A DNA stretch of 63,352 nt, the filler included, from Dimargaris cristalligena (Eukaryota), in assembly GCA_003614675.1 (NCBI GenBank). It is 22 parts of 22 records of this genome, joined end to end, with 100 filler letters (N's around TTAATTAATTAA, not from the genome) between each part and the next. Parts side by side here need not be neighbours in the genome. Positions count along the whole stretch, not along the records: positions 11,697 to 14,508 come from ML004109.1; 21 more parts are not named here. One strand, given 5' to 3'. A model generated the notes under the pieces. It searched no databases and was not told the DNA's origin. It saw only the letters and a program-made list of their open reading frames with translations. A program made the position numbers and the translations under genes. Positions 2,934-60,290 of the stretch are shown in pieces. The stretch's first letter is position 1. The number at the start of each line of letters is the position of its first letter.

Positions 2934-3601
2934 AATTCAAATATTACCATGGATGTAGTAAATGCGAATCCCGACAAACCATGGGACTGGGATGTGTTGA
3001 GTTTGAATCCAAACATCACCAGGGATGTTGTAAAAAAGAATCCAGACAAACCATGTCCTTGATAAGTTGGAATCAAAACATTACCATGGACATGGTCAGT
3101 GAGAATCCAGACAAACGATGGAATGATACCATGTTGAGTTGGAATCCAAACATTACCATGGATATGGTTAGTACCAATTTACAGAAGCCGTGGAATTATG
3201 GAAAGCTCAGTTCCAATACAAACATCAACATGGATATAGTGAATGCAAATCCAGAAAAGCCGTGGAATTGGCAAAGCTTGAGTAAGAATAGTAATATTAC
3301 TATGGAAATGGTGAATGGGAATCCAAATGCGCCATGGGATTATTTTGGTATGAGCAGGAATCCGAATCTCACAGTACAAATGTTCAAGGCGAATCCAGAC
3401 AAGCAATGGGATAATGACTATCTTTCTAATAATGACTTTAACTATGAGAAAAAACGATTACCGTTAGTATCTAAACAACATCGCAAGCTATTGGGCAAAC
3501 TACATAATGTCTTTGATATGCCACCGAGTTGCGACTCTCGTGCGATTTTCAAAAAAGGCGGAAAGGATTTCATGAAAGCATGGATGCATTTATGTCGGTA
3601 A
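2934..3601 (+). pseudogene. 5'-partial 24-aa tandem-repeat protein (NPDKPWxWxxLSxNPNITMDxVxx), giant-virus-like, frameshifted near 3055
   Basis: The frame from 2934 reads NSNITMDVVNA-NPDKPWDWDVLSLNPNITRDVVKK-NPDKP then stops at 3060-3062. The repeats resume in another frame at 3056 (SLISWNQNITMDMVSE-NPDKRWND...). About 7 units in total; the register implies a 7-nt deletion in unit 3. Confidence 0.75.
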
Positions 3602-3637
3602 AAGGATGAGGTTTCGCCTAGCTTCTTCATGGCTAAA

Positions 3638-4405
3638 TTATTGAATGTCAGCGCATATTTCCATTTTAATGCAAGAGCAGTAATGAAAGTTTTTTTGAAA
3701 GTTTTTTCCATTGAGTGTGTTCTTCGATTCAGAATCAGCGTTGTTTGGAGTCGACTTGAGGCCATTTTCGTTAAACCGAGTTTCCAAAGGTTTTGATTTG
3801 TCGGTTAGAAAGTTATTGAGAGTATCCGGGTTATAAGAACATTTCAGCACGATTTTTTTATCCGATTCAAAAAGATTTACCAAGGAGTCATCCTCTGTTG
3901 TGATCTTTACTGTGAAATGTTGAAAGTTTGCATTTAAATACGATAAATACGTTTGTGAACAATTGGATAAAATGTTCACATACTTGATTTTGTCAGTATG
4001 TGGGCATTTCTTTCTAACACATTGTTTTCAGATTTTATTTATCGATGAAAATATTTCTGAAAACGCGTGGAATATTTTTTCACTCTTCATTTCCTGCTTT
4101 TCGATATGTTTTTTTTTTGCGACGATTTACTGGATAACTTTTTCTTTCTGAGGCTTGATCTACGTGATCGACGCTTCATCAACGTCCTCCCGCCAACAGT
4201 TGAATTTCTAGGACTGTTGTGAAAAAAGAGTCGGACAGAAATGATTTTCGTCTAAACTGCTCGATATCAAAATTTGTCTACTGGACGAAGGCGAATAGGG
4301 AACTTCTTGATTGACCATGTACTGTTTTCTTTCTGCCGGTGTCATGAACATCAGATGATATTCTTTCCATATTTCTTCTCTTGTCATACGTTCTTGACCA
4401 GGCAT
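3638..4405 (-). pseudogene. Possible decayed Lys/Glu-rich ORF (ORFs 4208-4405 and 3638-3979 are in the same frame)
   Basis: Reading through gives protein-like KFNCWREDVDEASIT*IKPQKEKVIQ*IVAKKKHIEKQEMKSEKIFHAFSEIFSSINKI*KQCVRKK. Stops are at 4208 (TAG), 4160 (TAG), 4127 (TAA) and 4028 (TGA), each one C-to-T from Gln/Arg. This stop density is not clearly below random. Confidence 0.4.
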
Positions 4406-4610
4406 TTTTTAGCTGCCTAATACACTTTCTCAAACTTTTCACGTTTTGCATCAGTTTTCAATTTTTTATAATGGTATAAGTGTTCTGCGTCCCATTTTTC
4501 CTCGTCAGTGTTGATTCCCCATCTTTGTAAAACTCATCTCGTTTTTCTAACTCATCCAACATGACAGAAAGTTTTCTTTTAACTGTACCTTGTCTTTTTA
4601 TTGTTTCGGA

Positions 4611-5708
4611 ACTTTTTTTAAACATTTCAAGTATCTAATAATTGTCCACAAATTAATAATCGTTATCAATAGAAACACTTTTTCGATCGCCTCAAATTAT
4701 TAATAATTGTTATCAATAGAAATTGTTACTGATTGTTACAGTTACTGATTGATGTAAACGTCCCCTCTGCCAAAAATTGCGCATTGATAAGGAAGTCCTG
4801 TTATATTTATTTGCAACAAACCTTGAGAATTCTCGGAGCGCATGTCACGCAACTGGATGAAAAAAATCCCGAAACATTTCAAGGATTTTAGACTCTATCC
4901 GTGAAAATACCCAATCGATTGATGAACAGAAGGATCAGTTCAATACGGTGAAAAGAGATATTGCTTTACTCAAAAAGCAGTGCCTCATTGTGATTTATGA
5001 CGAAATGTCCGCCGATCAGTCATCTTAATTCAAGAGTTTCGAGTAAGAAACTATACTGCGCAAATGATTCAAAAACATTGTGAAAACTGTTGTGTAAGAC
5101 GATTTGCAAATAAGTTGTTGTAAGAAACGTACATTTCTGAAAAATTATAGGTGACGCCCTGGCATTGCTTTACAAAACAATCCCTCAAACTGGGTTGGTA
5201 TTCTAGTCGAATGATGTGAATTCGGGAACACCAGACGATCAAACAATAAAATCTTTTGTAGCAAAAGGCAATTCTTTTGGTTTCATCTTGTCAAAAGCTC
5301 AGACAACGGACAACCTTTTGGGGTCTTTAACAATATCAGTGATCAACTCTGATTGGATAACATCTACAGATCATAACTCGATCTTGACAACGACTCTGGA
5401 ATGGTTTCCCGCGTACATATCGCTAACCGGAGTCACAAGTTCCATAACTCTTTCTTCTCAAGGTTTGTTGCAAATAAATATAACAGGACTTGCTTATCAA
5501 TGTGCAATTTTTGGCAGAGGGGATGTTTACATTAATCAATAACTGGAAAAATTACATGCTTTCTGTGCTACCAATGCGGTTTTTGATGAACAATTTCTTT
5601 TGATAACAATAATTAATAATTTGAGGTGATCGATTAAAATTGTTTCTATTGATAACAATGATTGATTTGTTGACAATTTTTAGATACTTGAAATGTCTAA
5701 AAAAAATT
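4611..5708. repeat. ~120-bp inverted repeat pair (4611-4727 and 5589-5708), each ending in GATACTTGAA-ATG pointing outward
   Basis: The reverse complement of 5589-5708 aligns to 4611-4727 with about a dozen differences. Each copy contains a duplicated GTTATCAATAGAAA-like motif. The ATGs are at 4625 (-) and 5693 (+). Confidence 0.85.
5216..5542 (+). CDS. Hypothetical Ser/Thr/Ile-rich protein fragment on the virus-like contig
   Basis: 108-codon open frame with no ATG start. The frame extends upstream past an in-frame TAG at 5204-5206, so it may be a pseudogene. Confidence 0.4.
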   Translation: MNSGTPDDQTIKSFVAKGNSFGFILSKAQTTDNLLGSLTISVINSDWITSTDHNSILTTTLEWFPAYISLTGVTSSITLSSQGLLQINITGLAYQCAIFGRGDVYINQ

Positions 5709-6703
5709 CGATCACTGCTCGCGGCACAAAATGTCCGGTCCTTTGGGCTGACCAAGGGGGTGNNNNNNNNNNNNNNNNNNNNNNNNNNNNNNNNNNNNNN
5801 NNNNNNTTAATTAATTAANNNNNNNNNNNNNNNNNNNNNNNNNNNNNNNNNNNNNNNNNNNNACTCTTCGCCACTCTCACCCGCCTAATATCACTTCCGC
5901 GGTAGCATGGGTCGGTGTTTCATACAACGGGGATGGAAAATATATAGTCCCAGCCATGGGTGAGCAGCGGGGGACAAAGGTGTGTGTGTGAACCTGAGAA
6001 AATAAATGAGGATATACCAAGCCAAATAGATAAGGAATGGCGTAGATAGGTAGGCCGGTAGGTGGTATTTTTCTCGCAAGTGTCAGAGTGGCCGGCTCGT
6101 CTAATTATTCCGGACCCTGCCGAGCACATGCCTCCAGCTCCATTAGGCCTAATCGAGATGGAACACATACACTGTCACCACTATTGTCGCTAAACTTGTC
6201 CTTTCTATTGGCCCTTTCAGCGGATGCCGTCGTTGCTATACCACCGAGTAGTTGACCCTTCTTGGTCTTGTTGCTACAACTCCTTTTTTATGCTCTCCTT
6301 TTGCTATATTATTCTCGCCTGAGTCCTCTCTCCTCCACTTCCTTTCCCCTATATCATTCTCTGCTTCTCCATTTCCCCCACCAGTCCTGCCGAATCGCTC
6401 ATATCGGTTTACCCTATTGCCCCCTCATCTGTTTCACCCCCTCTCCTTCTGTCCGTGACTTGTAAGTAAAAATCTTGGATGTGCCTTTCCCCTATTTGCG
6501 AACCCTTCCGCCCTCATATCGGCTACACAGTAGGCCCTCTGATGAGATTGAGAAGGGCAATGCTCGGAACCCACCACCGGGACGGTCTCCCTCTATTCCT
6601 TACTAATGCATTCACCTATGCTATGGCACATTACCAATACCTCCGCTCCCGCTACAGTCTGATCGGTCCCCTTGGCTTCCCTTGAATTGGCCGTCTTTCC
6701 GCG

Positions 6704-8682
6704 ATGCCGTTCGTCATGAACCATAATAATCGGGTAGCTTGTGTGGTAAGTAGCGATTAATTATTAGGCTTTATTTATCGACGTAATTTCCGGACATATT
6801 GCCCACTATTGAGTCACCGACAGTCCACTATGGCCTGTAGTGACTGCCATGCCATGCTATACTATACTAAATTTTCCTTGCAACTCCCCACCAACACTCC
6901 ACTCATTTGTATATATCCATTTTTACCACCTCTGTGTGTATGCTCTCACGTGGCTTGTAACCACCCCCCCCCCTCCCCTCCTTATTCACTGCCGGCTATG
7001 ATGTCCAAATAGATGGTTGGACTACCAGCACGGGGCAAGACCTACATCGCCCAAAAAGGTGAGTTCCACAGCCGGTCTCTGGCCATTGGTGATTTTCCCT
7101 AGTAGCTGGGGTGATAAATAACATCGTCTGTAGCGTACTATTTCCCTACTACCAACCCTCCCATGACATAATTCCCTCAACTATATACTCACGCTCACTT
7201 ACACCAATCTGACCATAATCGAATATTGCCCTCCTTTTCCTCATCTCATAGTGTGTCGGTACCTCCAATGGGTGGGTATCCAAACCAAAGTGTTCAACGT
7301 GGGAAACTACCGGCGCCAACTAACCGGTGCCCAAACCGACCATTCCTTCTTTGATCCCCACAATGAGGAGGCCTCCCAACTCCGCCTCCAGTGTGCCATT
7401 GAGGCCCTAAATGATATGCTGCGCTGGTTCAAAAAGGATCACGGCGTAGTCGGGATTTACGACGCCACTAATTCCACCGCCAGCCGCCGGCGTCTCCTCC
7501 GCGAGCGACTGGAAGCCGCTGACATCCAGGTCATGTTTATTGAGTCCGTGTGCGATGCCGAGGACATTGTCCTGCGTAACATTATGCAAGTCAAGCTCAA
7601 CTCACCCGACTACGCCGACGGAGTCGAATCGGAAACTATCGTCAATGACTTCCGCGCCCGCATCGAGCACTACGAGGGGGTCTACGAACCCGTTACCGAG
7701 GATGAGTCCACCTTCGTCAAAATGGTCAATGTGGGTAGTAAGGTCATCATCAACCGCATCTGCGGCTATCTCCAAAGTCGGGTGGTGTACTATTTGATGA
7801 ACCTCCACATTGTGCCCCGAGCCATTTTCTTTAGCCGGCACGGCGAGAGTATGTACAACGTACTGGGCAAGCTGGGGGGCGACTCCGACCTTAGCCCCCG
7901 GGGTCGCAAGTACTCCGAAGCCCTTCCAGGCTTAATTTCCAAGCACCTGGATGGCCAAAACTTGACTGTCTGGACATCCACCATGCGCCGCACCATCCAA
8001 ACCGGCCAACACTTACCTTACCCTAAACTACAATGGAAAGCTCTAGACGAACTAGACGCGGGCGTATGCGACGGCCTTACCTACGAAGATGTCGAGCAAC
8101 AGTACCCCGAGGATTTCGCCCTCCGGGATGATGACAAATTCAACTACCGGTACCGCGGCGGTGAATCCTACCGGGACGTGGTGCTCCGTTTAGAGCCGGT
8201 CATCATGGAACTCGAGCGTCAGCACAACATTCTCATTGTCGGTCACCAGGCCATTCTGCGCTGCATCTACGCGTACTACCTCAATTACTCACACGAAGAA
8301 TTGCCGTATATTAAAATTCCGCTACATACCGTGCTGAAGCTGACCCCGCGCGCCTATGGATGTGATGTAGAGCAATACAAATTTGACATCGAGGCCGTCG
8401 ATACTTACCGTGCGAATCCTAAACGTCCGTCGTCGCTTAAGCGAGTGGGTGCCCATACCCCCACTACGTCGTCAGTGGGAGGCAGTGCGCCTTACAAACG
8501 CCCCCCAACGATGTCCGCGTCATCATCGGTCACTTCCGGCGGTGGCAGCGTGAGTAACATCCTAGGCGGGGGTGTTACGGGTGCATTTCAAGTGCCGACC
8601 TCCGTGCGTAATAACAACCTCCCACCCCATGCCAATACTCTGATTGGGGTATCCCCACCCGTCAGTGACCTCCCCCGGGTGG
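6704..8682 (+). CDS. 6-phosphofructo-2-kinase/fructose-2,6-bisphosphatase, 3'-partial; exons 6704-6745, 7013-7058, 7252-8682
   Basis: Introns GTAAGT...TAG (6746-7012) and GTGAGT...TAG (7059-7251) join in frame to give MVGLPARGKTYIAQKVCRYLQW (P-loop). Also present are FNVGNYRR, YDATNST, the phosphatase RHGES motif and YRYRGGESY. Confidence 0.95.
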
Positions 8683-11600: not shown

Positions 11601-11927
11601 NNNNNNNNNNNNNNNNNNNNNNNNNNNNNNNNNNNNNNNNTTAATTAATTAANNNNNNNNNNNNNNNNNNNNNNNNNNNNNNNNNNNNNNNNNNNNAAAG
11701 TAAAGATTCTTTTCTCCACATGTAATCTGTGCAAAATGAACTAAGAAGTATTGGTAATGTCATCTATTCGTGTTTGCTAACTATTACTATTACAATTGTA
11801 TATAGGCATCATTATTGTGGACGGTCGCAGTGTTGGTGTCAGAAGTCGTGAAAGTCAGAGCAATACAAGTCTGGAATTCCAGGTGTTCTGTGAAAATGCC
11901 ATTAATGGATATTGAATGTGATTGTAT

Positions 11928-12312
11928 AATGTTGAAAGAATTTGCAATGGGATTGTGATTCTAAAATGTTGAAAGAATTCGCAATGGGATTGTGAATGTA
12001 TATGATTGATTGTATAATGTTGAAAGAATTTGCAACGGGATTGTGAATGTATGTGATTGTAAAATGTTGAAAGAATTTGCAACGGGATTGTGAATGTGAT
12101 TGTGATTGTGATTGATTGTTTAATGTTGAAAGAATTTGCAACGGGATCGTGAATGTGATTGTGATTGAGATTGAGATAATGTTGAAAGAATTTGCAATGG
12201 GATTATGATTGTAGAATGTTGAAAGAATTGTGATTTCGATTGAGATTGTTATTGCAAAATGTTGAAATAATGTGCAATGAGATTGTGATTGTAGAAAGTT
12301 GAAATGATTTCG
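11928..12312. repeat. Array of a 31-bp core AATGTTGAAAGAATTTGCAAYGGGATTGTGA with variable low-complexity spacers
   Basis: Near-perfect cores start at 11928, 11965, 12016, 12063, 12122 and 12178; degenerate ones at 12215, 12258 and 12295. Spacers are 6-28 nt, built from GATTGT/GAATGT-like hexamers. Confidence 0.92.
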
Positions 12313-12322
12313 TTGGATGTAA

Positions 12323-12478
12323 GTTTTATCGATAAATATTTGTTTTCCCATGCAATACGGAAACTGACAATCGCACCGAGAAAGTATGCTGGTTAGTATG
12401 TTGGCATTTGCAAAAATGTTTTATCGATAAAATATTTGTTTCCCTATGCAATACGGAAAGGCCGAGAAAGTATACTGC
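12323..12478. repeat. Two ~60-70 bp direct repeats, each opening with palindrome TTTATCGATAAA
   Basis: GTTTTATCGATAAA(A)TATTTGTTT...ATGCAATACGGAAA...CCGAGAAAGTAT occurs at 12323 and 12418. Confidence 0.85.
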
Positions 12479-12662
12479 TTAAATGTTTTTTGTGATAAAA
12501 CGCGTTTGTAAAATAATATCCACAGCTAGCACCTTGAAAAATGTTTATCGTTAGATATCTTTGGTGGAATCGTTCTTAAAAGACAGTCTCATCAAGCGAC
12601 CCCACCATATTTATTCATAACTTCCAAAATCATTCAACGAAAGCTTAAAGATACTTTTCACG

Positions 12663-13157
12663 ATGAATACTGCGCGTACCATTTTCAACAAGATTTGGAA
12701 CAAGACTTTTGGCAAGATGTGGCCGATTAATTTCGGTTCAGGAAAAGAAGATATCGAAAGTCAACTCACTGGATCTAAAGTTACTTTTCAAGACGAAACT
12801 ACTGTGATAAGTTCTCTTTATGACAACGCAAGTGAAGAGCACCTCTATGTTCCTGACACGATCAATTTCGAAAAGCACCTCAAAAAGCCAGTCAAAATTC
12901 AAGAACGCATTATCTGTCAATCCCCAGAAACGTATAACGATGAATCATTGAAAGCGACCGTTGATAAAGTTTTGGACGATCCCCCAAACTTTTCACTCTC
13001 TCCGCCTGCTTTGCCTATTTCTAGTTACATTCCCGAAAACAACTCTGTCAAAAGGACACGTGGTACATCCATGATCGGCATTCCACAGGATGAAAAGATA
13101 TCCCACGCGAGCTCGACCGATTTTATGTCTCATTTTGTAGATTTAGTTAGCAAATAA
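12663..13157 (+). CDS. Hypothetical protein, 164 aa, on the virus-like contig
   Basis: Intact intronless ATG-TAA ORF, co-oriented with its neighbours and followed by a T-rich tract. Confidence 0.7.
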   Translation: MNTARTIFNKIWNKTFGKMWPINFGSGKEDIESQLTGSKVTFQDETTVISSLYDNASEEHLYVPDTINFEKHLKKPVKIQERIICQSPETYNDESLKATVDKVLDDPPNFSLSPPALPISSYIPENNSVKRTRGTSMIGIPQDEKISHASSTDFMSHFVDLVSK

Positions 13158-13289
13158 CGAAGTCTGCATTATGTTTTTTACTTTTTGTATTTTTTGAAAA
13201 AAGTCGAATAAAACACATCCGCGCTTATTGGGAAACATGCACAAAAAAAATGTAGTACAAAGATCATAGAGAAATACAAACACTGTTCA

Positions 13290-13763
13290 ATGCAAAACAT
13301 GTCAAGTAATCAATCAAATTATTCGCGTTCAATGAAACGCCAACCTTTGTTAGCTACGACTTATCTTCCCGAAAGAGCGATCCCGGTTCACAATAACTTC
13401 ACTAGCGATGAGTTTGGCTCTCCGCAAATCGCCGACTATGGGAAACGTAATTTTGACACCGAACAAGCTTTCCGAGATACTGCACCTTCATCACAATCAG
13501 GAGTGAGACAATTTTCCGGTCAACTTCCCTATGCGACCACACCTAGATCTTTTGAGAATCCAATGACAAAAATTATTCCTCAGCCGACAAAAATGGGAAA
13601 GGTTTGCTTTAACGATGCGTTGGACAAAGCTGGTCCATTCTATCTCAGGCAATGGCAAATTTGGGAGAATGCACCGTTTATTCCATCTCTTGGAGATGTC
13701 ACAAAAGACCCACGCTATGCTATTCAAACGAAAGGATTCACAACCGAATATACTAGAATCTGA
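13290..13763 (+). CDS. Hypothetical protein, 157 aa, on the virus-like contig
   Basis: Intact intronless ORF preceded by an A-rich leader and followed by a T-tract. No recognised domain. Confidence 0.7.
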   Translation: MQNMSSNQSNYSRSMKRQPLLATTYLPERAIPVHNNFTSDEFGSPQIADYGKRNFDTEQAFRDTAPSSQSGVRQFSGQLPYATTPRSFENPMTKIIPQPTKMGKVCFNDALDKAGPFYLRQWQIWENAPFIPSLGDVTKDPRYAIQTKGFTTEYTRI

Positions 13764-13801
13764 TTTGTTTTTTTAATTTCCTATAATCGGACGATGTTTT
13801 T

Positions 13802-13923
13802 GAGATTCTCGAACCGTTTATAGATAAAGTTTTTTTCAAATACATTCGAGATACACAGAGATTCTCAAAACCATTTATCGATAAAAAAAAATTTGAAATA
13901 CATTCGGGATTCACAGAGATTCT
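13802..13923. repeat. Tandem duplication of a ~57-bp intergenic unit
   Basis: GAGATTCTC..AACC.TTTAT..GATAAA.....AAATACATTCG.GAT.CACAGAGATTCT occurs twice. The second copy has TTTATCGATAAA at 13874. Confidence 0.75.
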
Positions 13924-14103
13924 GAAAAAAGACCGTTAAACACCCTCTTGTTCATCGGTTTTATCATGTGATTGTTCTAGGTTCTCTGGTTTCTTGGTTG
14001 CACCATATAATGATATTGAGAAAGGTTATCGATAAAACTTTTTATGGAATATAAAAATACATTGTTATTGGCTATGTTTCGCACAATCATTCAACCATTA
14101 CAT

Positions 14104-14508
14104 ATGTCACTGTATGTTCAGAAACTGAACGAGCGTGCGATTATTCCGACCAGACAGTCTGAAAACGCAGCGGGACTGGATCTTCATGCCTTTCTCGATG
14201 CTTCGTCGAAAACATTTGTTATACCACCCCATCATCGGCGTGTTATTCCAACAAAAATTGCAATCGAAATTGAGCCAGGTCATTATGGAAGGGTCGCGCC
14301 TAGAAGTGGATTGTCAATTAAAAATGGCATAGATGTCGCGGCAGGTGTTATCGATAGCGATTATCGTGGAGAAATTGGCATCGTTCTAGTCAACAATGGT
14401 GAAGAACCTTTCCATGTTGAGCACGGAATGCGAGTAGTACAACTGATAATCGAAAAAATTTCTATCCCGATTGTACGAGAAGTCAACAATTTGTCTGATA
14501 CTGTTCTA
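14104..14508 (+). CDS. dut: Trimeric dUTPase, eukaryote/virus type, 3'-truncated by the contig end
   Basis: Motifs AGLDL, GRVAPRSGLS, AGVIDSDYRGEIGIVLVN and GMRVVQLI. Motif V is missing at the contig end. The ATG at 14104 (MSLYVQKL) fits better than the one at 14044. Confidence 0.95.
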
Positions 14509-20425: not shown

Positions 20426-22624
20426 ATCAACTGGTACGGTCCTACCGAAGTGGCGTGTGGGTCCCATTGGACTAGACTCCAGACCAACAAGGTAATTATT
20501 CCCATTGGTACTCCGCTACCCAATGCCACTGGCATTATCCTCAATGCCCACCTCCACCCGGTTCCTGTTGGTGCCATAGGCCAGCTCTACCTAGGCGGCC
20601 GCGGCGTAGCCCGCGGTTATCTCAATCGCCCTGACCTTACGCAGGAAAAATTTATTTTGAGTCCGTTTACGGGGGAGCGCATCTACCAGTCGGGTGACCT
20701 GGCCCGCTGGCTACCCAACGGCCAAATCGAGTGCCTCGGCCGGATCGATAACCAGGTGAAGTTGCGGGGGTTCCGTATTGAACTAGGGGAAGTGGAAAGT
20801 GCCCTGGAACGTCACCCCGCCGTGGATCAAGCATGTGTTGTCCGGGATAAGGACCATTTGGTTGGCTACATTGTCCCCCCTTTTGGCCAGACAGCCACCA
20901 TTCTAGATTTTCTGCGTTCTCAGTTACCCCACTACATGATTCCCTCCGTTCTGGTGGAACTGGCCGAATTGCCACTGACCCGGGTGGGTAAGGTTGACCG
21001 CAAGGCCCTGCCTATGTTCGATTTGCCTGTTAATGACCATATCCCAGAAACTGTACAGGCCAGTCCGGTCGAATCCGGGCTTATTAGCCTTATAGCTGAA
21101 ACCCTTCAGATCAATCCAGGTTCTATTTCACCAACGGTCACTTTTTTCCAACTCGGTGGCAATTCCCTGTCGGCCATCCAATTAGTTACCCGCTGTCGTC
21201 GCCAGAACCTTCAGCTGGCCCTAGTGGATATCAACCGGTCCAACACGATTGCCTACCTTGCCAAACTAATTTCGATTGCATCCGATTCCGTCGAAGTGTT
21301 TTCGGGAGATACCCGTGGTACAGCAGACTCGGAGTCCCGAACTGCGCGGCTTACGCCACCTCAGCTGGAATTAATTGCCCTCCAGCTGGCCGACCCTCAC
21401 TTCTTCCCCTTACCCACCATGTATGAATCAAGCGTCCGGTTTACCGCCCATCAGTGGCAAGCCGCCTGGACCAAGGTGGTTCAGCACCACGACATGCTCC
21501 GGGCTCGCTTTCAACCCACAAATAATGGGGAATCGATGATTACATTTGCTGATTTAGATGACCCTTCGTCCACTTATTTTGAATACCACCAAGTGGCTGA
21601 TATCCGCGATGCGCTAGTCCAGCTCAACCACATTAACCACCTGATTAATTTCGAGACTGGGCCAATTTCCCAGGTTCGAGTATTCGATGCCAACGGCATT
21701 CAATACGTCTACATTTCCGTCCACCATATGGTCTTTGATTATATGTCAGTTCAGATTGTTCGAGAGGACCTTTCGGCCTACTTAACCGGGCGGGCTCTAG
21801 ACCCCAAAACCCATTCGCACACGGTGTGGGCTGACTACCTTTGGTCGCTGGCCCAATCCATTGATCCGTGTACTATCGAGTTACCCCCGCCTGCCATTCC
21901 CCTACCTTTAGAGATTGCTGCAAATGGCGCCCCAATTACCAACGAAACCCGGGAATGCGTGGCGAAACTCATCGATCAAAGTGCCGCGCATAACCTCGTG
22001 ACTACCGTGGCCACTAGGCTCAAAGCCACGCCCATCGAACTCATCTTGGCCGCCCTAGTATGCGCCTATGGCAGACAGTTTGGATTATCCCAGATGGACA
22101 TTGCATATCTAGGCCACGGTCGCAAGGATCCCTATGGCCAGTGCGATGTCTCACGAACAGTCGGCTTCTTCGCCAGTCAATTCCCATTGGTTTTCTGCAA
22201 TGCACCTAGTGGCGATTTGGTGGACACGTTATATCAAGTTCAAACAACTCTGAGTACGGGAATGGATAATGGCTTCCTGTATACTGTATTCAAGAATCTA
22301 CATTGCTCTGCCAACGATCAAATTGACCTAAAACAGCAGTTTGACGTGCAAACCCAGTTCGAGTTTACGTATTTAGACGATTTGTCTCTATGTGAGTCGC
22401 CCAACACCAATACACTCCTTGTTGAACGACCCGCAATGCTTAATGATCTACGGACCGCGAAGAGCCAAAACAAATACCCATATTTATTCGACTTCACAGC
22501 TTGGAACACCGCTGGTGGATTGGACATTATAACCAATTTCAATTCAAGGCAGTTTCGGGTGGAGACCATTGGCGGTCTGATGTCGCACTGGAAAAACTGT
22601 CTTCTTGAGTTGTCCCGCGTTTAA
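20426..22624 (+). CDS. NRPS final module, 5'-partial: A(C-term)-T-epimerization-like terminal domain
   Basis: A motifs NWYGPTE, GQLYLGGRGVARGYLNRPDLT, YQSGDL, GRIDNQVKLRGFRIELGEVE and GKVDRKALP. T domain FFQLGGNSL. Then HHMVFD, LGHGRKD and SRTVGFF (E-domain-like), ending at TAA. No introns. Confidence 0.95.
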   Translation: MNWYGPTEVACGSHWTRLQTNKVIIPIGTPLPNATGIILNAHLHPVPVGAIGQLYLGGRGVARGYLNRPDLTQEKFILSPFTGERIYQSGDLARWLPNGQIECLGRIDNQVKLRGFRIELGEVESALERHPAVDQACVVRDKDHLVGYIVPPFGQTATILDFLRSQLPHYMIPSVLVELAELPLTRVGKVDRKALPMFDLPVNDHIPETVQASPVESGLISLIAETLQINPGSISPTVTFFQLGGNSLSAIQLVTRCRRQNLQLALVDINRSNTIAYLAKLISIASDSVEVFSGDTRGTADSESRTARLTPPQLELIALQLADPHFFPLPTMYESSVRFTAHQWQAAWTKVVQHHDMLRARFQPTNNGESMITFADLDDPSSTYFEYHQVADIRDALVQLNHINHLINFETGPISQVRVFDANGIQYVYISVHHMVFDYMSVQIVREDLSAYLTGRALDPKTHSHTVWADYLWSLAQSIDPCTIELPPPAIPLPLEIAANGAPITNETRECVAKLIDQSAAHNLVTTVATRLKATPIELILAALVCAYGRQFGLSQMDIAYLGHGRKDPYGQCDVSRTVGFFASQFPLVFCNAPSGDLVDTLYQVQTTLSTGMDNGFLYTVFKNLHCSANDQIDLKQQFDVQTQFEFTYLDDLSLCESPNTNTLLVERPAMLNDLRTAKSQNKYPYLFDFTAWNTAGGLDIITNFNSRQFRVETIGGLMSHWKNCLLELSRV

Positions 22625-46329: not shown

Positions 46330-46432
46330 CTGCCACCTCTTGGAACAGCAAGTCTATCATCACCTTTCCCTTCTTATCATCTATTTTTTAAATAAAATTC
46401 AGTTTTCAAGGATTTGATTTCAGTTCTTTACA
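46330..46432 (-). mobile_element. LTR family B, partial copy (another partial copy at 60604-60678, minus strand)
   Basis: The reverse complement matches TGTAAAGAACTGAAATCAAATCCTTGAAAACTGAA... of 63004. Confidence 0.85.
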
Positions 46433-47379
46433 CTTCATCTCACCCTTAGTACTATTTATTGTATTAGGTATTTCCAGTGATCATATTAGTTGAAACTACA
46501 TTTAATAAATACTACTGTGATGAGCTTAATTCTCATCTTACAGTTCTTTCTATTTCATGTCTATTTTAAAATAAACTTTGCCTTTAATTAATCTTGGAAT
46601 ATCATTGAGAGAATCTGCAGTTATCCTAATAATAAGATCTCCTAATATGTCTTTATAGGAAGTAAAGTTAATTCTTACTCTTTTAGACTTAAGTAATATA
46701 AGTAATATAGGGCCAAATAGTGTAGTACTTAATAATTTAGTTACTAGCTATAAGGTTTTGTAGCCTAATTATAAAACTATTTTTAGTCAAATATCTGATA
46801 TCTGATTTATAACTCTCCTTTTCACCCTATTGACCCAACATAGTAATATAATTAAGGTAGAGGCTATAACTAATCATATAAAATAAGGTGGTTCCTATAT
46901 ATACAAGTACCTCTTTAGTTTCATTAGCCTTATAGTCCTTAAATTTGGGATTACCAGCTTGCATAATTAGTTATATAAAATACTGGAATAAACTATGGTA
47001 AATCTGTAACAATTTACTAAAATGCCCAGATATGCTAATGGTATAAATGAGATTAGCAATCAGAAAGGGGGCTATAATCTAAATAGTCATCCCACAAATA
47101 GGTGTTTTAAGAAAGAAAGGCTTATAGACTCCCTGACTATAAGTAAGCTCCAAGGTAGTGACCAGGTAGCAGTGGCTATTTGAGTATATAAGTCAGCCTT
47201 TCTGGACCTGGTTAAAGATATATAAAGAGCCATATTGCTAACTTAGGATAATAAGAAACTCTTAGTCTATTCAAATATAGAGAATGTCAATGAAAATATT
47301 AATTAACAATCTCAATTATTATTAATTAGTGTTGGACCATATAATACACCTTAATCCTCACATATTAGTATCTACCCTT

Positions 47380-47900
47380 ATTAGGCCTTATAGTGCCATA
47401 TCAACCCTCCCAAAGCCACCCCTGGTACTATGGGATCATCCTATATCATATAACCATTCCCCTTCTAGACTCCACCTCTTTGCACTAATTACTCAAGTGC
47501 TGATCTGATGACTCTTCTGGTTACCATCAGAGTCTTCCAGACCCTAATGACCATCTGATTGGCCTATATTACTATATTTTAGTCTTAGTAGTATTCTTCC
47601 CATGGGGCCTCCCTCTGGAGTTGCCCCCACATCTATATACTGGGCCCTATTGGGACCAGTTAGATTCCCCAGCTTATTCTTACTCCTTGTTTACCCTAAT
47701 AAACTCTATATATACTTATTCCCCCATATCTAATAGTAAGTGTGCCTACTACACATCCCTTGCATATCCCTACTACTTAGCCTTTATTAGTTAGTACTAT
47801 GTCCTGTACCTAATACTAGTAGCCTACTTAGCTGAGCCTAAGCCTCATCTACCATTAGAAGCCTATACTTGGGACTCTTAATGGACTAAGAGTAGTGAAC
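47380..47900 (+). mobile_element. Heavily decayed multi-copy retroelement 3' region (Gypsy integrase-like); related pieces near 34090-34520, 41760-41860, 62780-63003 and 31610-31712 (-)
   Basis: A shared block CACTAATTACTCAAG(T)RCTRATCT and its flanks occur in contigs 12, 17 and 22, with a residual YTGPY motif. The region is nearly free of CpG. Confidence 0.65.
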
Positions 47901-48546
47901 CTGGGTAATAATATGAGCTGTTGGGATTGATAATAATTGTTTTTTTCCTTATCTATTGATGACATTTTTTATAAAGTATTTGTGTGGGTGTTTGAACTAA
48001 AATGGCATTATAGAATGTTGTAGTAAAGCTAGGATGCCCCATAATAATGTAAGGTAGTAATGACTTGGACTGTTGAATAATGATAGAGGAGATGTAAATA
48101 GATATGTCAATAATTGATTACATGTTAGACATAACATAAAGTATCACAATTTTTTAGTACTGTGTCTTTGTACCTGGTGCTAGTAACTACATAACCAAAT
48201 CTAAGTTAGTCCTACCAGTGGATGCCTATCCCTGGGATCCTTAATGGACTAAGAGTGGTTAACTCATATGATAAGGACTAAATCAGGCATTTATTGAATT
48301 ATGTAGTTAAAATAAATTGTTTCATAAAGGAGAGGAAATAATTCAATGTCATCAAGATACAAGTATATAAAATCATAGATGTGGGGACCATTATTATCAT
48401 GTGTGTGTGTGTTTCCCTCTATCGTTTATGCTAGGGGCTTACATACAAATGTCAGCCATATTAATTCGAGTAGGCGGGATTTGGTACGGACCCACCTACC
48501 ATGGGGTGCTGTGGTGCGGCAGCCTAGAATGCGTATTTTTCCCCGC

Positions 48547-48876
48547 TCAAATAGTATTGTCAGCCTCGGTCAGTGGTACCGCATGGCCCGGTCTGTTCAC
48601 CGTAACTGGGTGCGCTGTATAGCACCCACTAGTTGAGCCCGTCCCACATACACTTCCACAGGACAGTCGACTAGTAGGGCTATACGTGGTGCATGGTTTA
48701 ACGCAATTGCCACTAGTTGGGCAGAGGAAGTAGGAGTTGTCAATGGTACGTCTCGATATATCCGATTCACTTTCTAACATTCTTGCGTAGCAGCACGAAT
48801 TCAAGACAATGGGGCTGGCGGAGGTGCCAACCAAGTAGGTGGCGGTAAGGAGGGCGAGGGTGGTGATGAAACGCAT
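48547..48876 (-). CDS. Small secreted cysteine-rich protein (109 aa, 8 Cys)
   Basis: Signal MRFITTLALLTATYLVGTSA. Intact ORF with normal CpG content next to CpG-free TE debris. Confidence 0.8.
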   Translation of the reverse strand: MRFITTLALLTATYLVGTSASPIVLNSCCYARMLESESDISRRTIDNSYFLCPTSGNCVKPCTTYSPTSRLSCGSVCGTGSTSGCYTAHPVTVNRPGHAVPLTEADNTI

Positions 48877-49885
48877 ACTGGTAAAGTACCGGGTGAGGTC
48901 GGATAAAAAAACAGAGGGGGTATTAGGTTTCTGGATAAGGCAAATGGTTACAATATCGTAGTAGAACTTTGAATAAAATTAAAATATATGTTTGGCGAGA
49001 GAAATTGGGGATAGTGGCGAATGTGAGTGTGTGTGTTAGGGAGTGGATAATTGTGAGTAAAGAGGATTGGATAGGGTCAGGGTTTTATATTGTTACTAGG
49101 AAAGANNNNNNNNNNNNNNNNNNNNNNNNNNNNNNNNNNNNNNNNNNNNTTAATTAATTAANNNNNNNNNNNNNNNNNNNNNNNNNNNNNNNNNNNNNNN
49201 NNNNNGATTTATGCGGAGACTGAATATGATATAGACCCAATGGCTATCGACGGGGGTATGGCAATACCAAATCCACAATTAGATCTATCGGATAGTTTAT
49301 GATTTGCCCGACCCATATCTTTGGTATTTTAAAGAGGCTTTATGGCCGATATTAGTACATTAATAGCACTGTGTATCTAAATAGGATTGTAGTAAGTGCC
49401 CCTGGATGCAGTCCATTACCACCCTATCTGTTACCCCCACTATTGACTTTTATTGAAGTAGTTTCAAGACTGCTTTTAATCCAGGCTAATTTAAGCAGAA
49501 AGGCTAGCTTTATGTAGCTCCTCTGATCATGTATCGACCATGGGGAAATCCACCGATGAAGCCGTCAAATTTTTTCCCATTTCGTTGGATATGCACTGGC
49601 TTCTTGTTAACTAGGCCCATTTTTTTTATTCTATTGAGTCACATATTTTTCGCCCATGCTACAGACCTGTAATTGTCGTTGTCACATATACCGCATTATA
49701 TGCTCGTATATTATTAGTACACTTGGCTGCAACAGCTCTCCCGGCCACTTTACGTCGTTGCATTCATTGCCTGCAGCCATCCGCTTATCTTATGCCCACC
49801 TGAGCTACTTCCATCACTCCATCTTTTTATATTTTCATTTCTAGTTTTATATATTCTACCTTTTTAACACTAGACCTTAACCGCC

Positions 49886-54890: not shown

Positions 54891-57651
54891 GCAACGGCCG
54901 TGCCTGAAGGGTCTTGCGGTCGGCCTTGCCCACGGAGGTCATCGGAATACAGTCCAATATGACAATAAAGTTGGGCACCATGTACTGTGGAAGCTTTGAG
55001 GCAAGGTGGACATTAATGGCTGCTGTATTAACTGAGCTTGGGGCAATGTAGAGAACAATTTGCTGCTGGGTGACGCAGGCCACGGCATTGGCAACGCCCT
55101 CAATTGATGAGGCGGTGTTTTCGATCTCGCTCAGCTCGATACGATAGCCGCGTAGTTTGACTTGAAAATCCTTCCGTCCAATGTAATAAAGTAGCCCATT
55201 GGGTAGCCAGCTAACAAGATCGCCTGTTCGGTATAGATTACCAGGTCCAAATGGGTTAAGGACAAAGGCCTGGGTCGTCAATTCGGGCTGCCGCCAGTAA
55301 CCAGAACTAATACCAATACCGCCAAGGCATAGCTCTCCGGGCACCCCAATAGGGACGGGGCAGAGGTTGTCGTCCACAATATAGCAAGTGTAATTAGCTA
55401 ACGGTCTCCCAATGGTGTTTGGTTCGTCAATTTGGACCAGGGAGCTGTGACTGTGGATGGTGGCCTCTGTTGGTCCATATTTGTTAAACAGCCGAACGCG
55501 CGTACACCAACGACGGGCCACTTGCACAGGGAGGGCATCGCCAGTTGCTACCACCTGGGTAAGGTTAGGGAAGTCGCTGGGATTGAGGGCGGCCAAAATG
55601 GATGGGACCAAGCAGCACGTGTTGACCCGTTTAAGAGTATCTAGAAGGTCCCCATCCTGAAGAACCAAAGTACCACCAGCGTGAAATACGGCAAAAATCT
55701 CGCTTATACACACATCGAAGGAAATGTTCATGGCTTGGAGCATACGGGTTGATGAATCCAGCTGTAGATCCAGGTCATTGGCTAAAATGTAGTTCACAAG
55801 CGACTCATGACGAATGGGCACGCCTTTGGGCCGACCCGTAGTGCCCGATGTAAAAAGCATATACATGAGGTCAGTAGACAGGCGAGTACTATCGGGCTGG
55901 AATCCGGACGTATCTTGACGCTCACAGTTAATATTGTCAAACAGAAGTAGACGTAATTTAGCCACCCCTAAATTGTCGAGAGCAATCGATTGGTGGGCCG
56001 TGTCAGTGATTGTCCAAGGACTATCCAGGAGCCCCAGGGTATACCGTAGACGATCAATGGCATTCGTCGGGTCCAATGGGGCGCAAACTCCGCCGGCCAA
56101 CAGGACTCCTAAGTAGCTGAAAATAAACTCGACCGATCGGGGGAAAAGCAAGGCAACGAAATCGCCACTTTGAAGGCCGTGTTGTCGGAGTGCCTGGGCA
56201 ACACATTTGGCGCGGTGATACACCTCGGTATAGGTATACCGCCGGTTGGAGGACTCTAGTGCAATAGCACCGGGTTGGGAAGTGGAGTGCTCAGTGAACA
56301 ACTGATGGGCCAGCCAGTGGCGCTGTGTAAACTCAAGAACCGGGCCCCGGGCCCATGTGTGTACGAGCTTGGCCTCATCGGTCGGCAGGCCAACAAGTTC
56401 GCGCAAAGTCAACGACGGGGACCGCACCATCAATGTCAGGAAATGGTCGATAAAACGAGCCAAGAGGCGGGCGTAGATCTCATCGCAGTGTACAGTTTCG
56501 TAGACTAAGTATAATTCCAAATTTTCCCCACTATCGGCAAAACGAACTGTGTAGGCATATTCAGTGAAGTTCTGTCCGTCACGAGATTCAAGGGTAATTT
56601 GGGAGTTGGTGATATTCGACATGGCAAGTGGAAAGTTGTCATACACGACAAAGGAATTGAACAGCCGTCCCTCAGAGTCAATCTGGCCCCATTTGTAGAT
56701 GTCTAGAAGGCCGCACTGTTCCGACATCGTCAGATCACCCGATTGATGGTGCATTCGTTGGATGAAATCGGAAACTGGGGCTGACAAGTCCAGCAATACT
56801 CGGTAGGGTAAAGTATTGATACACATGCCCACCATCCCCTGAATACCAGTAACAGCAATATTGCGGCCGGAAGTAAGGACCCCGAAAGTAACCTCATTCG
56901 CTTCACTAAGGTAGCGGGCTAGAGTGAGTGCCCACACACTACGCAGGAGGGAGTTGAGTGTAATGCTTTGCTGGCGACAGAAAGTGTGTAGGGTTCGCAG
57001 GTCGATTGATAGTGTGGAGCGATGGGCACCATGTTCGCGTACAGGAGGTTCGGGATAGTGAACGGGGAAATGTATTGGCGGGGTAGGTCGGGCATTTTCA
57101 AGGGTTGAACGCCAGAATTGCTGGTGCAAAGACCGGTCTATCGATTGGAGACGGGCGATATAATGACTAAATTGGGTACATGGAGAGGGTGTAATGCCAT
57201 GGTATAGGTCAACCAGTTGGGCTAAAATAATATTATGGGACCAGGCATCGAGTAGGCCGTGGTGAAAGGTGAAGAAACATAAATGGCGGGAATTGCTAGT
57301 GGCAGGTGAAATGAAGAGGGAGATTCTTAGTAGAGGTCCGTCAAAAGTAAACCCGCGTTGACGGTCGCCCGCAAAGTAGGTTTTCTCCAGTGTGGACCAG
57401 TCGTCGACTATGTTAGTATTGATGGTCCATTCAATGTCACACCGCTTCGTGATAACCTGGAGGAACGAGTGAGTTGACAGGGATCCAGGCTGGAAAAATT
57501 TAGCTCGCAAGATGTCATGATGCCCGGCCAGCTGGTGCCACGCTTCCTGGAGGCGACTTACGTCCAAGTCCCCAGAAATGGTAAAGGACTCCTGCACCAT
57601 ATACGAGCTTGGGTCTTTCAGGGTACTGACGAGGAAGCCCAGTTGGAGCCC
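54891..57651 (-). CDS. NRPS internal module, partial at both ends: DCL-type condensation + adenylation domain
   Basis: Open across the whole contig. C domain: GLQLGFL...YMVQ, HHDILRAKF, HHGLLDAWS, VTFGVLTSGR, MVGMCINTLP. A domain: FTSGTTGRPKG, NKYGPTE, GELCLGG, YRTGDL, VKLRGYRIEL, GKADRK. Confidence 0.95.
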
Positions 57652-57802
57652 NNNNNNNNNNNNNNNNNNNNNNNNNNNNNNNNNNNNNNNNNNNNTTAAT
57701 TAATTAANNNNNNNNNNNNNNNNNNNNNNNNNNNNNNNNNNNNNNNNNNNNAAAAATAGATAAAAAATAAAAGTAGGTAAAAAATGTGGTAAGTTCACCA
57801 CA

Positions 57803-59628
57803 GCAGCAATAAATGGTTACGGATCATGCAGCCAACTGCTGAATCAAATAGTTCATCGGATTTGGGCCTTAGTAGCCAAGAACAACATCGAAATCTTTGG
57901 GGGGGGGGGCACAGCATCTGGCTGGAATTCTCAATACCGAGGCTGACTTTCTCTCCCAGATCAACCAGCAGGGGGATTGGAAACTGGCACACAAATTATT
58001 CAGGTCCCTAGATCACTCATTCGGGCCGCACACAATCAATTGGTTTACAAGTCCCTGGAATGCCCAGCTGACCTGCTATTGCACCTTGAACCCACATCCC
58101 AGAGTAGTCGGACAGGATGCCTTCTCCCTCGATTGGTCACAGGAAAACGGGTGGTTCAATCCACCATTTGGAGTAATCAATCAGGTATTAGCAAAAATAA
58201 TACAAGAACATGTTGGAATACTAAGGACTTAAAGGAAATAAAACTGAAAGTAAGGGAAGAAAGCAGCTAGAGGACAGTAGGTACCTCTAGGTGGTTAGTT
58301 TTATTGAGTTGTAATTTCTGTAGAGTGAAATATAATTGGCTAACATGAATGATCTCATGATAGCAGAATAAACTAACGTAATTGGGTAAAAATAGGATAG
58401 AATAAAGAACACATAGGAACATATTCTTCAACAGAACAGGCACGAGGGACAATTATTCTACCCCTATGGAAGAGCCAACCCTGGTGGCCACCCCTAGTTG
58501 AGCATGCAAAATTAATCAGTGAACTTCCGATTCACGGCCAATGGGCAATCCCACCAATGGGGTCTCACAATTTACTCCCAGAACCATTCATGAATCGATG
58601 TTGGAAAATGATTGTAGCTCAATTTTAGGCTCACTTAGAACCCAGGGGGATTATTCTTCCATGATTACAGACTGGTGGTTGGCACACTTGGCTCTGAACT
58701 TACCAGAAGGAAGTATAGCATCAACCATCCTGAAGAACAGCCTCTCCAAGGCAACTTGGAAGACCTACGAGAATCATCATCACCAATATCTGCAATTTTG
58801 TCAATTGAGAGGTATATCTGTGCATCTGATCTCAGACGTGACTCTGATTTCATACCTAGTACACCTATATACCTTAAGGGTAAATCCCCAGTCAATACCC
58901 GGTCAATACCTGGGAGGCTAGCACCAATAACAAAGTTTGATAGGGCCACTTATGGCCAGGTCGAATTTTCCAAGGAGGCTGTATCACAGTTTTGAAAGGG
59001 CTATGCAGTTACCTTTTACCAGGACTTTCCAGAGTTAAGGGATCCCGAAGGAGCGCACCCAATCCCCACACATCTATATAGGTGTCTGTATTCCCTGGGG
59101 TGGGTCCTGAATAAGGTATAATTAGAATGGGGTGTCCTATTTATCATTGGCATTATTTTTGGTCTATGCACGAGTTCATTAGCCAGTCTATGATGGCAAG
59201 ATGTGACCCTCGAGGGTCTTACATTGTCTATCTTCATTGCAGGTGAAAAACGTAAGGCTCACATAGAAGGTATCCATTGGGTGGCCAGTCCAATTTGCCT
59301 GGGCTTTAAAGCCATTCTTGAACAGTATCTAGCATCACTAACCTCAGACAGGCTGTGGCAAACATTCAAGAGCAACCCAGCAGCCTGGGTTACCTGGTGT
59401 ATCCAAGCCCTATTCCAGTCATTCAGGCATCAGGGTATCACTGCCTCTGACTACTCATCACATAGTTTAAGGAAGACAATGGTTGCTGGTATGCTCACTG
59501 CTAAGATTGATCCATTGAGGGTATTGGATTGGGGCCATTGGGAGGCATTAGAAACCATGAGGGCTTATTGCCGAGTGTCTTTACCTTATCATCCTGATCT
59601 CCAGTTAGTTTTTTTATTTATCATTTAA
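57803..59628 (+). mobile_element. Decayed DIRS-type tyrosine-recombinase retrotransposon: RNase H end, adenine-methyltransferase-like domain, YR
   Basis: RNase H: AAINGYGS...IW...HLAGILNTEADFLS. MT: DAFSLDWSQENGWFNPPF...VLAKIIQE/QARGTIILPLWKSQPWWP. YR: SLSKATWKTY, GL(R>C)TSSL, SHSLRK...GHW...AY, with a frameshift near 58900 and several stops. Confidence 0.9.
58211..58433. mobile_element. Solo LTR (family A, Copia), 223 bp, with 5-bp TSD GAACA
   Basis: TGTTG...CAACA flanked by GAACA at 58206-58210 and 58434-58438. Removing it restores the MT reading frame. It is homologous to 61776-61999. Confidence 0.95.
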
Positions 59629-60145
59629 AGGATTCAACCATTTTCAGTTATCACATTTCAATTTCTGCAAGTTTCTATCCATTTAGTCTACCTAGTTATA
59701 AGTTTTATATATTTAGTTAAGAACCCTTCAGACAACTCCTTTGTAATGGAGTCATCAATTCGAGAGTTAGGGTTATTGGGAATAGGCATCTATTAATGAT
59801 AATTTGTTTTTTAAAAACTCATTATGTTAATAAAGGGGAAAGAAAAAATTTTCCGTAAAAATATTACTTTCCCCAAAGTAGAAAGGAAAAATTTCCATGC
59901 AAAAATTTGTTTCTCTATCTTTCTCCTTCTTTTATTCCTTCCTACCAGCCTACCCTATTAGTTTATTCTATTTTTACTATCAAAATTTGTCTCTGCTGTG
60001 TTCTTTACACTTGTATACGATGACTTTTCGGTTATTATAGACCGTGGACTTGTCCATTGAGTGAAATAAGTATCGCCAATAAATAACAAAACGTCGACAG
60101 CATCTATTAATAATAATATCCAATAGGCAAGTGGAGGCCATGCTT

Positions 60146-60290
60146 ACCCACATTTGAATGGGCATGTGCATTCCCTCCAAGTGGGCCAATGTTCACCCAA
60201 ATTTGAATAGGCATGTACATTCCCTCCAAATAGGCTAATGTATACCTAAACTGGAAAAGGAATGTACATTCCTTTAAAATAAGTTATTAA
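60146..60290. repeat. Three tandem 49-bp units, progressively AT-enriched
   Basis: ACCCACATTTGAATGGGCATGTGCATTCCCTCCAAGTGGGCCAATG at 60146, with variants at 60195 and 60244. Confidence 0.85.

Follow-up and report, generated by a model that had tools for sequence, protein, structure and literature searches.

The DNA window analysed here (63,352 bases) comprises 22 contigs of the Dimargaris cristalligena assembly, each of about 2.75-2.83 kb and ordered from longest to shortest, and it is not one molecule. The contigs are joined through N44 + TTAATTAATTAA + N44, and 23 ACGT stretches are obtained from them because one contig has an internal gap of 8 N. This report deals with the stretch 11697-14508, which is exactly one separate contig of that assembly (2,812 bp) and carries on its plus strand three co-oriented intronless open reading frames (ORFs): 12663-13157 (ORF164, 164 aa), 13290-13763 (ORF157, 157 aa) and 14044-14508, which encodes a dUTPase. 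The presence of these genes, described in an initial annotation that ascribed them to a virus, is confirmed by ORF calls and by first-order Markov simulations of the contig, in which a third-longest ATG-ORF of at least 135 aa was obtained in 0/1000 cases and a longest ORF of at least 155 aa in 14/1000. The contig is probably best treated as non-target DNA common to single-cell assemblies, and not as an integration into D. cristalligena.

The features of the contig are the following:

11697..11889, no strand: unique 5' flank without ORF; the contig begins where the assembly breaks, not at a true end of the molecule
11890..12330, no strand: tandem array of ~8 degenerate units, period 37-59 nt, with core AATGTTGAAAGAATTTGCAAYGGGATTGTGA and GATTGT microrepeats (Tandem Repeats Finder scores up to 331)
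12321..12490, no strand: ~96-nt unit in two copies, each with the palindrome TTATCGATAA (12326-12335, 12421-12430), then ATATTTGTTTYCCYATGCAATACGGAAA and CCGAGAAAGTATRCTG (repeat and palindrome analysis)
12663..13157, plus strand: ORF164, lineage-specific, no known domain; N-terminal ~70 residues conserved in one other protein
13063..13353, plus strand: 291-nt GT..AG segment falsely treated as an intron in the deposited model P0121, which thereby fuses ORF164 residues 1-133 to ORF157 residues 23-157
13158..13289, no strand: spacer: T-runs and palindrome TTTTTTGAAAAAA, followed by the A-rich ORF157 leader; two in-frame TAA stops part ORF164 from ORF157
13290..13763, plus strand: ORF157, intact member of an unnamed conserved family; likely start Met4 (13299)
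13800..13930, no strand: ~58-nt unit in two copies (CAGAGATTCTC..TTTATMGATAAA..TTTSAAATACATTCGRGATWCA), with TTATAGATAA (13818) and TTATCGATAA (13875) (repeat analysis)
14026..14035, no strand: fourth exact TTATCGATAA, 9 nt 5' of the ATG at 14044 and 69 nt 5' of the likely dUTPase start at 14104
14104..14508, plus strand: trimeric (all-beta) dUTPase (PF00692), motifs 1-4 intact; the contig stops one codon short of motif 5

The contig has a GC content of 0.368, with observed/expected (o/e) ratios of 1.17 for CpG and 0.59 for TpA. Very similar values are found in the contig 2934-5762 (GC 0.361, CpG 0.97, TpA 0.57), hereafter the twin contig, while TpA o/e lies between 0.72 and 1.24 in all the other contigs of the window. 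The trinucleotide profiles of the two contigs correlate with r 0.92 (L1 distance 0.125), and the next-best match among the 21 other stretches, a comparison that takes in contigs of the same GC, reaches only r 0.39 (L1 0.32). The likeness to 2934-5762 claimed in the initial annotation is thus borne out. Because 2934-5762 is the only compositional twin among the 22 other ACGT stretches, a common origin of both contigs is well supported, and an origin different from that of the rest of the window is also supported. CpG is indeed retained, as had been claimed, but this is not a distinguishing mark, since contigs with a GC of at least 0.47 also reach o/e values of 0.81-0.93; in other contigs with a GC of at most 0.42 the ratio is 0.05-0.69, except for one 775-bp piece. 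Extreme CpG depletion was observed in the AT-rich contigs 60604-63352, 57752-60503 and 46330-49105 (o/e 0.05, 0.29 and 0.32, respectively), which are presumably the mutated host repeats with which the contig had been contrasted.

No similarity between the contig and the other contigs of the window was found by blastn. These other contigs encode ordinary cellular genes: 6-phosphofructo-2-kinase (6PF2K), a class II tRNA synthetase, a GH3 hydrolase and fragments of nonribosomal peptide synthetases (NRPS), the modules of the latter (Condensation, AMP-binding, PP-binding) appearing as long uninterrupted ORFs on two contigs (20426-22621 and 54892-57651). Scans of the contig for tRNA, Rfam families and bacterial promoters or terminators gave nothing above chance. 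As regards the gene borders, T-rich tracts (42-48% T) follow the first two ORFs as annotated, whereas the A-rich leaders attributed to all three genes are clear only for ORF157 (52% A), the values being lower for ORF164 (38% A) and the dUTPase (28-37% A).

DNA of the contig is also present in 6 public runs, belonging to 3 studies and bearing 3 organism labels. Four of them were compared with the contig: X1 and X2 (label A), X3 (label B) and X6 (label C), the labels being coded and the data consisting of Logan contigs with one depth figure per contig.

Genes and repeats of the contig

The dUTPase matches Pfam PF00692 (E-value 7.4e-32) along positions 2-118 of the 129-position profile, scoring 110.3 bits where the curated cutoff is 22. 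Its reading frame is open from 14044, the likely start being the ATG at 14104 (MSLYVQKL...), as in its relatives P0001 and P0002. Motifs 1-4 (AxGxDL, PRSG, G[VI]ID.DYRG and R[IV].Q) are kept: the residues shared without exception by 10 aligned relatives are all present in the window protein (A22 A23 G24 D26 L27; G62 R63 A65 P66 R67 S68 G69 L70; A80-G89; R110 Q113 L114), the invariant blocks being AAG.DL, GR.APRSGL, AGVIDSDYRG and R..QL. The protein stops in the window at codon 135, and after 14506 the contigs of X2 and X6 continue in frame with R-G-H-D-G-F-G-S-T-G. Because these contigs read on into motif 5 (RG..GFGSTG, which closes the active site), the source gene would possess all five motifs, and only the assembly would cut the dUTPase at this point. 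The best matches among solved structures (116-123 bits) are of the eukaryote type and include entries named as mitochondrial isoform; a second, lower group (~57 bits) presumably includes the bacterial 1dud type. The family match, the structure matches and the motifs all uphold the eukaryote-type dUTPase of the initial annotation, and the enzyme is functional-looking, as judged from its sequence.

dUTPases convert dUTP to dUMP and pyrophosphate, keeping uracil out of replicating DNA and feeding dTTP synthesis, and they are commonly carried by large DNA viruses, whose replication they protect in cells with low host dUTPase. The protein encoded in the contig has no close relative, the best of 7,954 matches being 46-58% identical; the best named match is that of the ciliate Blepharisma stoltei (58%), and two fungal sequences show 48-51% identity. 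In the viral collection IMG/VR, 587 of 599 pattern matches encode dUTPase relatives. The best 80 of these 587 (loci L012-L091) resemble the window protein in being eukaryote-type trimeric enzymes of ~140-150 aa with the same motifs, and their contigs resemble the window contig in their dense, intronless, co-oriented small ORFs and repeat-rich spacers; they differ in that identity is only 43-53%. Cellular DUT1-type dUTPases also share with it the Pfam family and the motifs, and its best structure matches are eukaryote-type enzymes, but the window gene is distant from the two fungal sequences, intronless, of 37% GC and placed beside neighbours without a cellular namesake. As a separate observation, the metagenomic relative P0001 (272 aa), which ranks first by bits, carries the dUTPase domain twice in tandem, and its halves group with dUTPases of viral contigs (support 93/94).

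ORF157 had been considered an orphan, which is not borne out, since 18 relatives form with it an unnamed conserved family. Sixteen of them match at E 2.7e-45 to 3.3e-25 (46-66% identity) and 2 are distant; all are metagenomic, unnamed, stand-alone proteins of 110-199 aa, with neither a Pfam domain nor an ORF164-like part. An alignment of 14 sequences contains 16 invariant columns in the C-terminal block (GQLPY..TTP...VCFN.AL...GP[FW]YLR.W...PF.PS.GDV.KDPRY..QTKGFTTEY), and the nearly invariant start Met of the family falls at Met4. Pfam searches with ORF157 and all 14 family members gave nothing real, a PDB profile search with the family returned 0 matches at E up to 5, no match was found in 185,579 prokaryote genomes or in phage records, and plasmids contained no relative of ORF157 or ORF164. 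Among 5.8 billion clustered proteins no named cellular genome was found to have ORF157 or ORF164, the only named proteins among their relatives being gene models of the single-cell assemblies of D. cristalligena and Blyttiomyces helicus. A protein-atlas look-up of ORF157 yielded only unnamed clusters (0.82-0.87, under the trust level of the tool), and AlphaFold models reached a pLDDT of 52.2 (full protein, 14 sequences) and 50.9 (C-terminal 89 residues, 20 sequences), values therefore too low for a fold comparison. In one metagenome locus (L001) a convergent neighbour gene, whose C-terminus looks by eye dual-specificity-phosphatase-like, ends 24 nt from the ORF157 homologue; in another (L002) the neighbours are dense, intronless and without known domains, one of them giving only a 29-residue match in the viral collection. 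ORF157 would be a conserved small protein of the source lineage, and to regard it as a virion or core component is a guess.

ORF164 contains no Pfam domain, and a first protein search recovered nothing but its own gene model; one relative exists. This sole true relative, P0140, has 102 aa and is 69% identical along ORF164 residues 1-70 (E 1.3e-20); it is a B. helicus gene model located on a 13,113-nt contig. The matches P0141-P0143 (E 2e-8 to 2e-4) were discarded as spurious, each being a 39-residue alignment of ~22 bits multiplied by identical bacterial Ig-like repeats. Of the profile searches for virion proteins proposed in the initial annotation, those in Pfam (both small ORFs) and in PDB (ORF157) gave no match.

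The two small ORFs are represented in the deposited gene set by a single D. cristalligena model, P0121 (RKP33268.1, hypothetical protein BJ085DRAFT_31414; 269 aa), which matches both at 97-100%. Because all the relatives of the ORF157 family stand alone, this fusion is an artefact that arose when a gene caller for fungi was run on foreign DNA. Taking into account that ORF164 and ORF157 share a frame with two TAA codons between them, a ciliate-type genetic code was also considered; it was rejected on the grounds that 20/20 Gln codons are CAA or CAG and that ORF157 family members are stand-alone and end at the same TGA/TAA stops.

The repeat-rich intergenic DNA reported initially is borne out by the tandem array and by the 96-nt and 58-nt duplications. 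A minus-strand ORF of 149 aa (11902-12351) was discarded as a gene, being a translation of the repeats without Pfam match. The 10-bp palindrome TTATCGATAA has 4 exact copies in the 63 kb of the window, every one of them in this contig. Both the tandem unit and the palindrome are multi-copy in the source, as loose ends in other genomic contexts appear under the three labels; loose ends at 11958 in X1, X3 and X6 indicate that in the source genome the array unit has other neighbours as well. In the twin contig, a copy of the palindrome with one mismatch (TTATCGATGA) was observed at 4039-4048 in a similar context (…TTTATCGATGAAAATATTT…). The palindrome is absent from the first 10 recovered loci and has two copies in the 522 kb of 91 loci. 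Its interpretation as a simple promoter is not supported, since only one copy lies just upstream of a gene and none before ORF157; nor was it recognised as a known promoter, as the literature texts covered by the search offered only primers and cloning sites. Its core presumably equals the insect DRE element, which is taken only as a lead. A 20-mer of the repeat flank had 0 matches in the viral collection, and the 1 match of a 20-mer of the repeat core (L092) was attributed to chance, being single-copy, in unrelated surroundings and without tblastx similarity.

In their arrangement these elements resemble the homologous regions (hrs) of baculoviruses and similar arrays of other large DNA viruses, where tandem repeats between genes also contain an imperfect palindrome whose core is a restriction site (here ATCGAT), with copies at several places. 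The sequences are unrelated, and the arrays described here are known from one 2.8-kb piece, by sequence only. The palindrome-centred arrays may be putative hr-like binding sites for a replication or transcription factor.

The twin contig and giant viruses

A protein built of 24-residue repeats (…NPNITMDMV..NPDKPW.W..LS…) is encoded in the twin contig, and 8 of 16 candidate stretches in IMG/VR match it with 39-51% identity, 5 of these 8 being named GVMAG (giant-virus metagenome-assembled genome). One of the matching loci (L010) carries a major capsid gene of nucleocytoplasmic large DNA viruses (NCLDV; PF04451, E 1.9e-56), and another (L009) an AEP_C962R primase, TFIIS and an RPB9-like zinc ribbon. 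Other features that fit a large DNA virus are the dense intronless genes, the occurrence of genes found in no named organism, the retained CpG and the palindromic repeat arrays. Taken together, these sequence data make a viral nature of the contig fairly likely.

Several additional observations were made on these loci. L010 also contains, at 6553-7455, a D12-class N6-adenine DNA methyltransferase gene (E 3e-43), 5.5 kb from the capsid gene, in a contig that also has paralogues of the repeat protein. The repeat gene of the twin contig (2934-3601) has no start within the contig, its frame being open at that end, and near 3055-3060 it shifts to another frame, the repeat spacing there being 65 nt and not 72; the ATG-ORF called at 2981 starts in the wrong-frame stretch. 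Decay by a frameshift or a misassembly of the repeats may explain the change. This contig also has a long imperfect inverted repeat (4609-4829 and 5455-5709), formed by three adjacent arm pairs of 74, 45 and 98 nt that are 89-93% complementary and enclosing ~625 nt, which is too divergent for a chimera of whole-genome amplification.

Giant-virus sequences, among them those of Mycodnaviridae, have been described in assemblies of non-Dikarya fungi (Myers et al., PLoS Biol 2026, PMC13533422), and that article reports one capsid-protein match in the D. cristalligena gene set, the only non-zoosporic case. The contig resembles the sequences presented there in being virus-like and contained within an assembly of this kind. 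It differs from them in that the integrated viruses of that article are joined to host chromosomes, whereas the window contig is not, in that it offers no marker gene for a family placement, and in that it recurs nearly identical in the assembly of a second fungus. The text of that article has 0 occurrences of Blyttiomyces or of contamination.

Provenance in fungal assemblies and public runs

The near-identical contig in a second assembly and the runs under three labels, which concern the provenance of this DNA, are new here. The B. helicus gene model P0144 (RKO88108.1), located on a 4,967-nt contig, is identical to P0121 at 268/269 residues and falls in the same 90%-identity cluster as RKP33268.1; the ORF164 relative P0140 is a further paralogue in that assembly. 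The word depth of the contig is ~420-520 in X1 and X2, ~8 in X3 and ~3-5 in X6. The label-A variant differs from the window by 8 substitutions and 1 indel, and X1 and X2 carry G>A at 12855, leading to the D65N of the B. helicus model. X3, under label B, keeps D65 as in the window and differs at 5 other sites, and X6, under label C, contains a ~2%-divergent variant. In X3 and X6 some stretches of the contig are uncovered.

The contigs of X1/X2 cover 11697-11946 from their own position 196, thus extending 195 nt beyond the 5' end of the window contig, and they run 533 nt beyond its 3' end. Both ends are therefore assembly breaks read through by these runs. The composition is foreign throughout, and no junction with host (fungal-type) DNA was found in the window contig or in the run contigs. 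The initial annotation had left room for a recent integration or an active infection of D. cristalligena, which is not supported in view of the missing junction, the 268/269-identical B. helicus model and the occurrence under three labels.

The comparison with the X6 strain bears on the state of the genes. All the indels (7/7) are non-coding, among them a 10-nt and a 1-nt deletion in the spacer 13158-13289, and substitutions affect 23 of 1,140 covered non-coding bases against 6 of 773 coding ones (Fisher p 0.035). In ORF164, 3/4 strain substitutions are synonymous. Because the indels are all non-coding and substitutions are rarer in coding bases, the ORFs are under constraint in a diversifying population, and not decaying.

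As regards the samples, a single-cell project yielded both the D. cristalligena and the B. helicus sequences; its paper (PMC6784888) indicates that library crosstalk had occurred earlier and that DNA of numerous non-target species is present in the B. helicus samples. According to a companion article (PMC8042348), the B. helicus sample was heterogeneous, was sorted unpurified and has the lowest share of supported gene models.

Nature and source of the contig

The balance of these data inclines slightly towards a fragment of a large eukaryotic dsDNA virus, most likely of the Nucleocytoviricota, or a very recent endogenous copy of it in another host. Its DNA would have reached the assembly as non-target DNA common to the whole-genome-amplified single-cell libraries of one project, through co-sorted particles, carry-over or library crosstalk, and the richer source would be the sample with the B. 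helicus variant. If viral, the dUTPase would hydrolyse dUTP, limiting uracil in the replicating viral DNA. The initial annotation had assigned both contigs to the same or a related virus; their common origin stands, and their viral identity is likely, with the reservations that follow.

Several results weigh against the viral interpretation. No hallmark gene (capsid, polymerase B, A32 packaging ATPase, D5 primase-helicase or VLTF3) is found on the contig, nor does the twin contig contain one, and the link of the contig to viruses runs solely through composition and the neighbour contig. In IMG/VR, the ORF157 family gave 10 pattern matches with 0 confirmed and ORF164 has no relative, and members of the ORF157 family lie on metagenome contigs of 147, 158 and 44 kb (P0126, P0139 and P0133). 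In sequence the dUTPase is roughly equidistant from viral contigs, with 43-53% identity, and from those of cells or metagenomes, where identity reaches 58%. In a 92-row quick tree and a 40-row careful one it sits on a long branch (0.59-0.75) in no supported clade, either with the giant-virus enzymes or with others. The careful tree places it loosely with protist and metagenome sequences (support 67/92), the two fungal sequences grouping apart from it (99/67), and the approximately unbiased (AU) test nevertheless does not reject the constraint that unites it with the two fungi (p-AU 0.85), the constrained tree being 36 log-likelihood units better than the quick free search. The phylogeny with fungal and viral homologues suggested in the initial annotation could thus be built, but it gave no supported placement and did not reject the fungal, DUT1-like grouping. 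Finally, there are four haplotypes (window, X1/X2, X3 and X6), while simple crosstalk from one library would give identical sequence; they fit a population of non-target particles or cells that may have reached several sorted samples.

Among the alternatives, the one that survives best, and is still rather unlikely, is a non-target cellular eukaryote, that is, a contaminating unsequenced protist or microbe, AT-rich and gene-dense, in which the dUTPase would be a housekeeping DUT and ORF157 a lineage-specific protein. The best named match of the dUTPase in a ciliate and its loose position among protist and metagenome sequences would agree with this source, as would the absence of the ORF157 family from the viral collection, its presence on metagenome contigs of up to 158 kb and the environmental-like character of the B. 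helicus sample (PMC6784888, PMC8042348). Against this source, introns are absent, the spacers are very short, and no named cellular genome with ORF157 or ORF164 was found among the 5.8 billion clustered proteins. Moreover, relatives of the twin contig's repeat protein occur in giant viruses, next to capsid and primase genes, and a ciliate code is unlikely given the Gln codons and the stops used by the homologues.

Returning to the large DNA virus, it could be speculated that it represents an undescribed giant-virus lineage truly living with a fungus, most plausibly the chytrid whose libraries contain it with ~450-fold depth in several separately sorted samples. We consider this unlikely, and equally doubtful the idea that such a lineage would be marked by the ORF157 family, whose 18 environmental relatives include no named virus or organism, and by the TTATCGATAA-centred arrays.

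The view of the initial annotation, a virus of D. cristalligena itself in active infection or recently integrated, has become improbable. The intact ORFs and the kept CpG are compatible with it, as is the capsid-protein match published for the gene set of this fungus (PMC13533422), and the window haplotype differs from the deep one of X1/X2 and was therefore not simply copied from there. Nevertheless, host junctions are missing and the ends are read through by other runs; a chytrid assembly holds the 268/269-identical model on a longer contig, plus a paralogue; the DNA appears under three labels, the D65 variant with a depth of only ~8 against ~450 for the other variant; and 99.6% identity across fungal phyla is unexpected from independent infections.

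Another mobile or viral element (polinton-like virus, virophage, large transposon or another family of large DNA viruses with dUTPase) is very unlikely. In its favour, the phylum is not fixed by any hallmark gene, none of the libraries tried recognises the ORF157 family and palindrome-bearing repeat arrays also exist in unrelated large DNA viruses; on the other side, homology offers a single link, through the twin contig's repeat protein, and it leads to contigs of giant viruses, and no integrase, transposase or small-virus capsid gene is found on either contig.

The public models RKP33268.1 and RKO88108.1 each join two genes of foreign origin by artefact. For a still uncharacterised lineage, a handle is provided by the ORF157 family, the repeats with the palindrome and the distinctive composition, which could serve to retrieve the remaining genome from the deep libraries. 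Giant-virus sequences in fungal assemblies serve to argue which fungi host such viruses, and D. cristalligena is cited as the only non-zoosporic case (PMC13533422). Because virus-like DNA of its assembly recurs nearly identical in that of a chytrid, an unrelated fungus from the same project, and in runs under three organism labels, this record needs to be re-checked against the B. helicus data before use. If the contig does belong to a giant virus of a chytrid, the Dimargaris signal may be spill-over, and fungal giant viruses would then be confined to zoosporic lineages.

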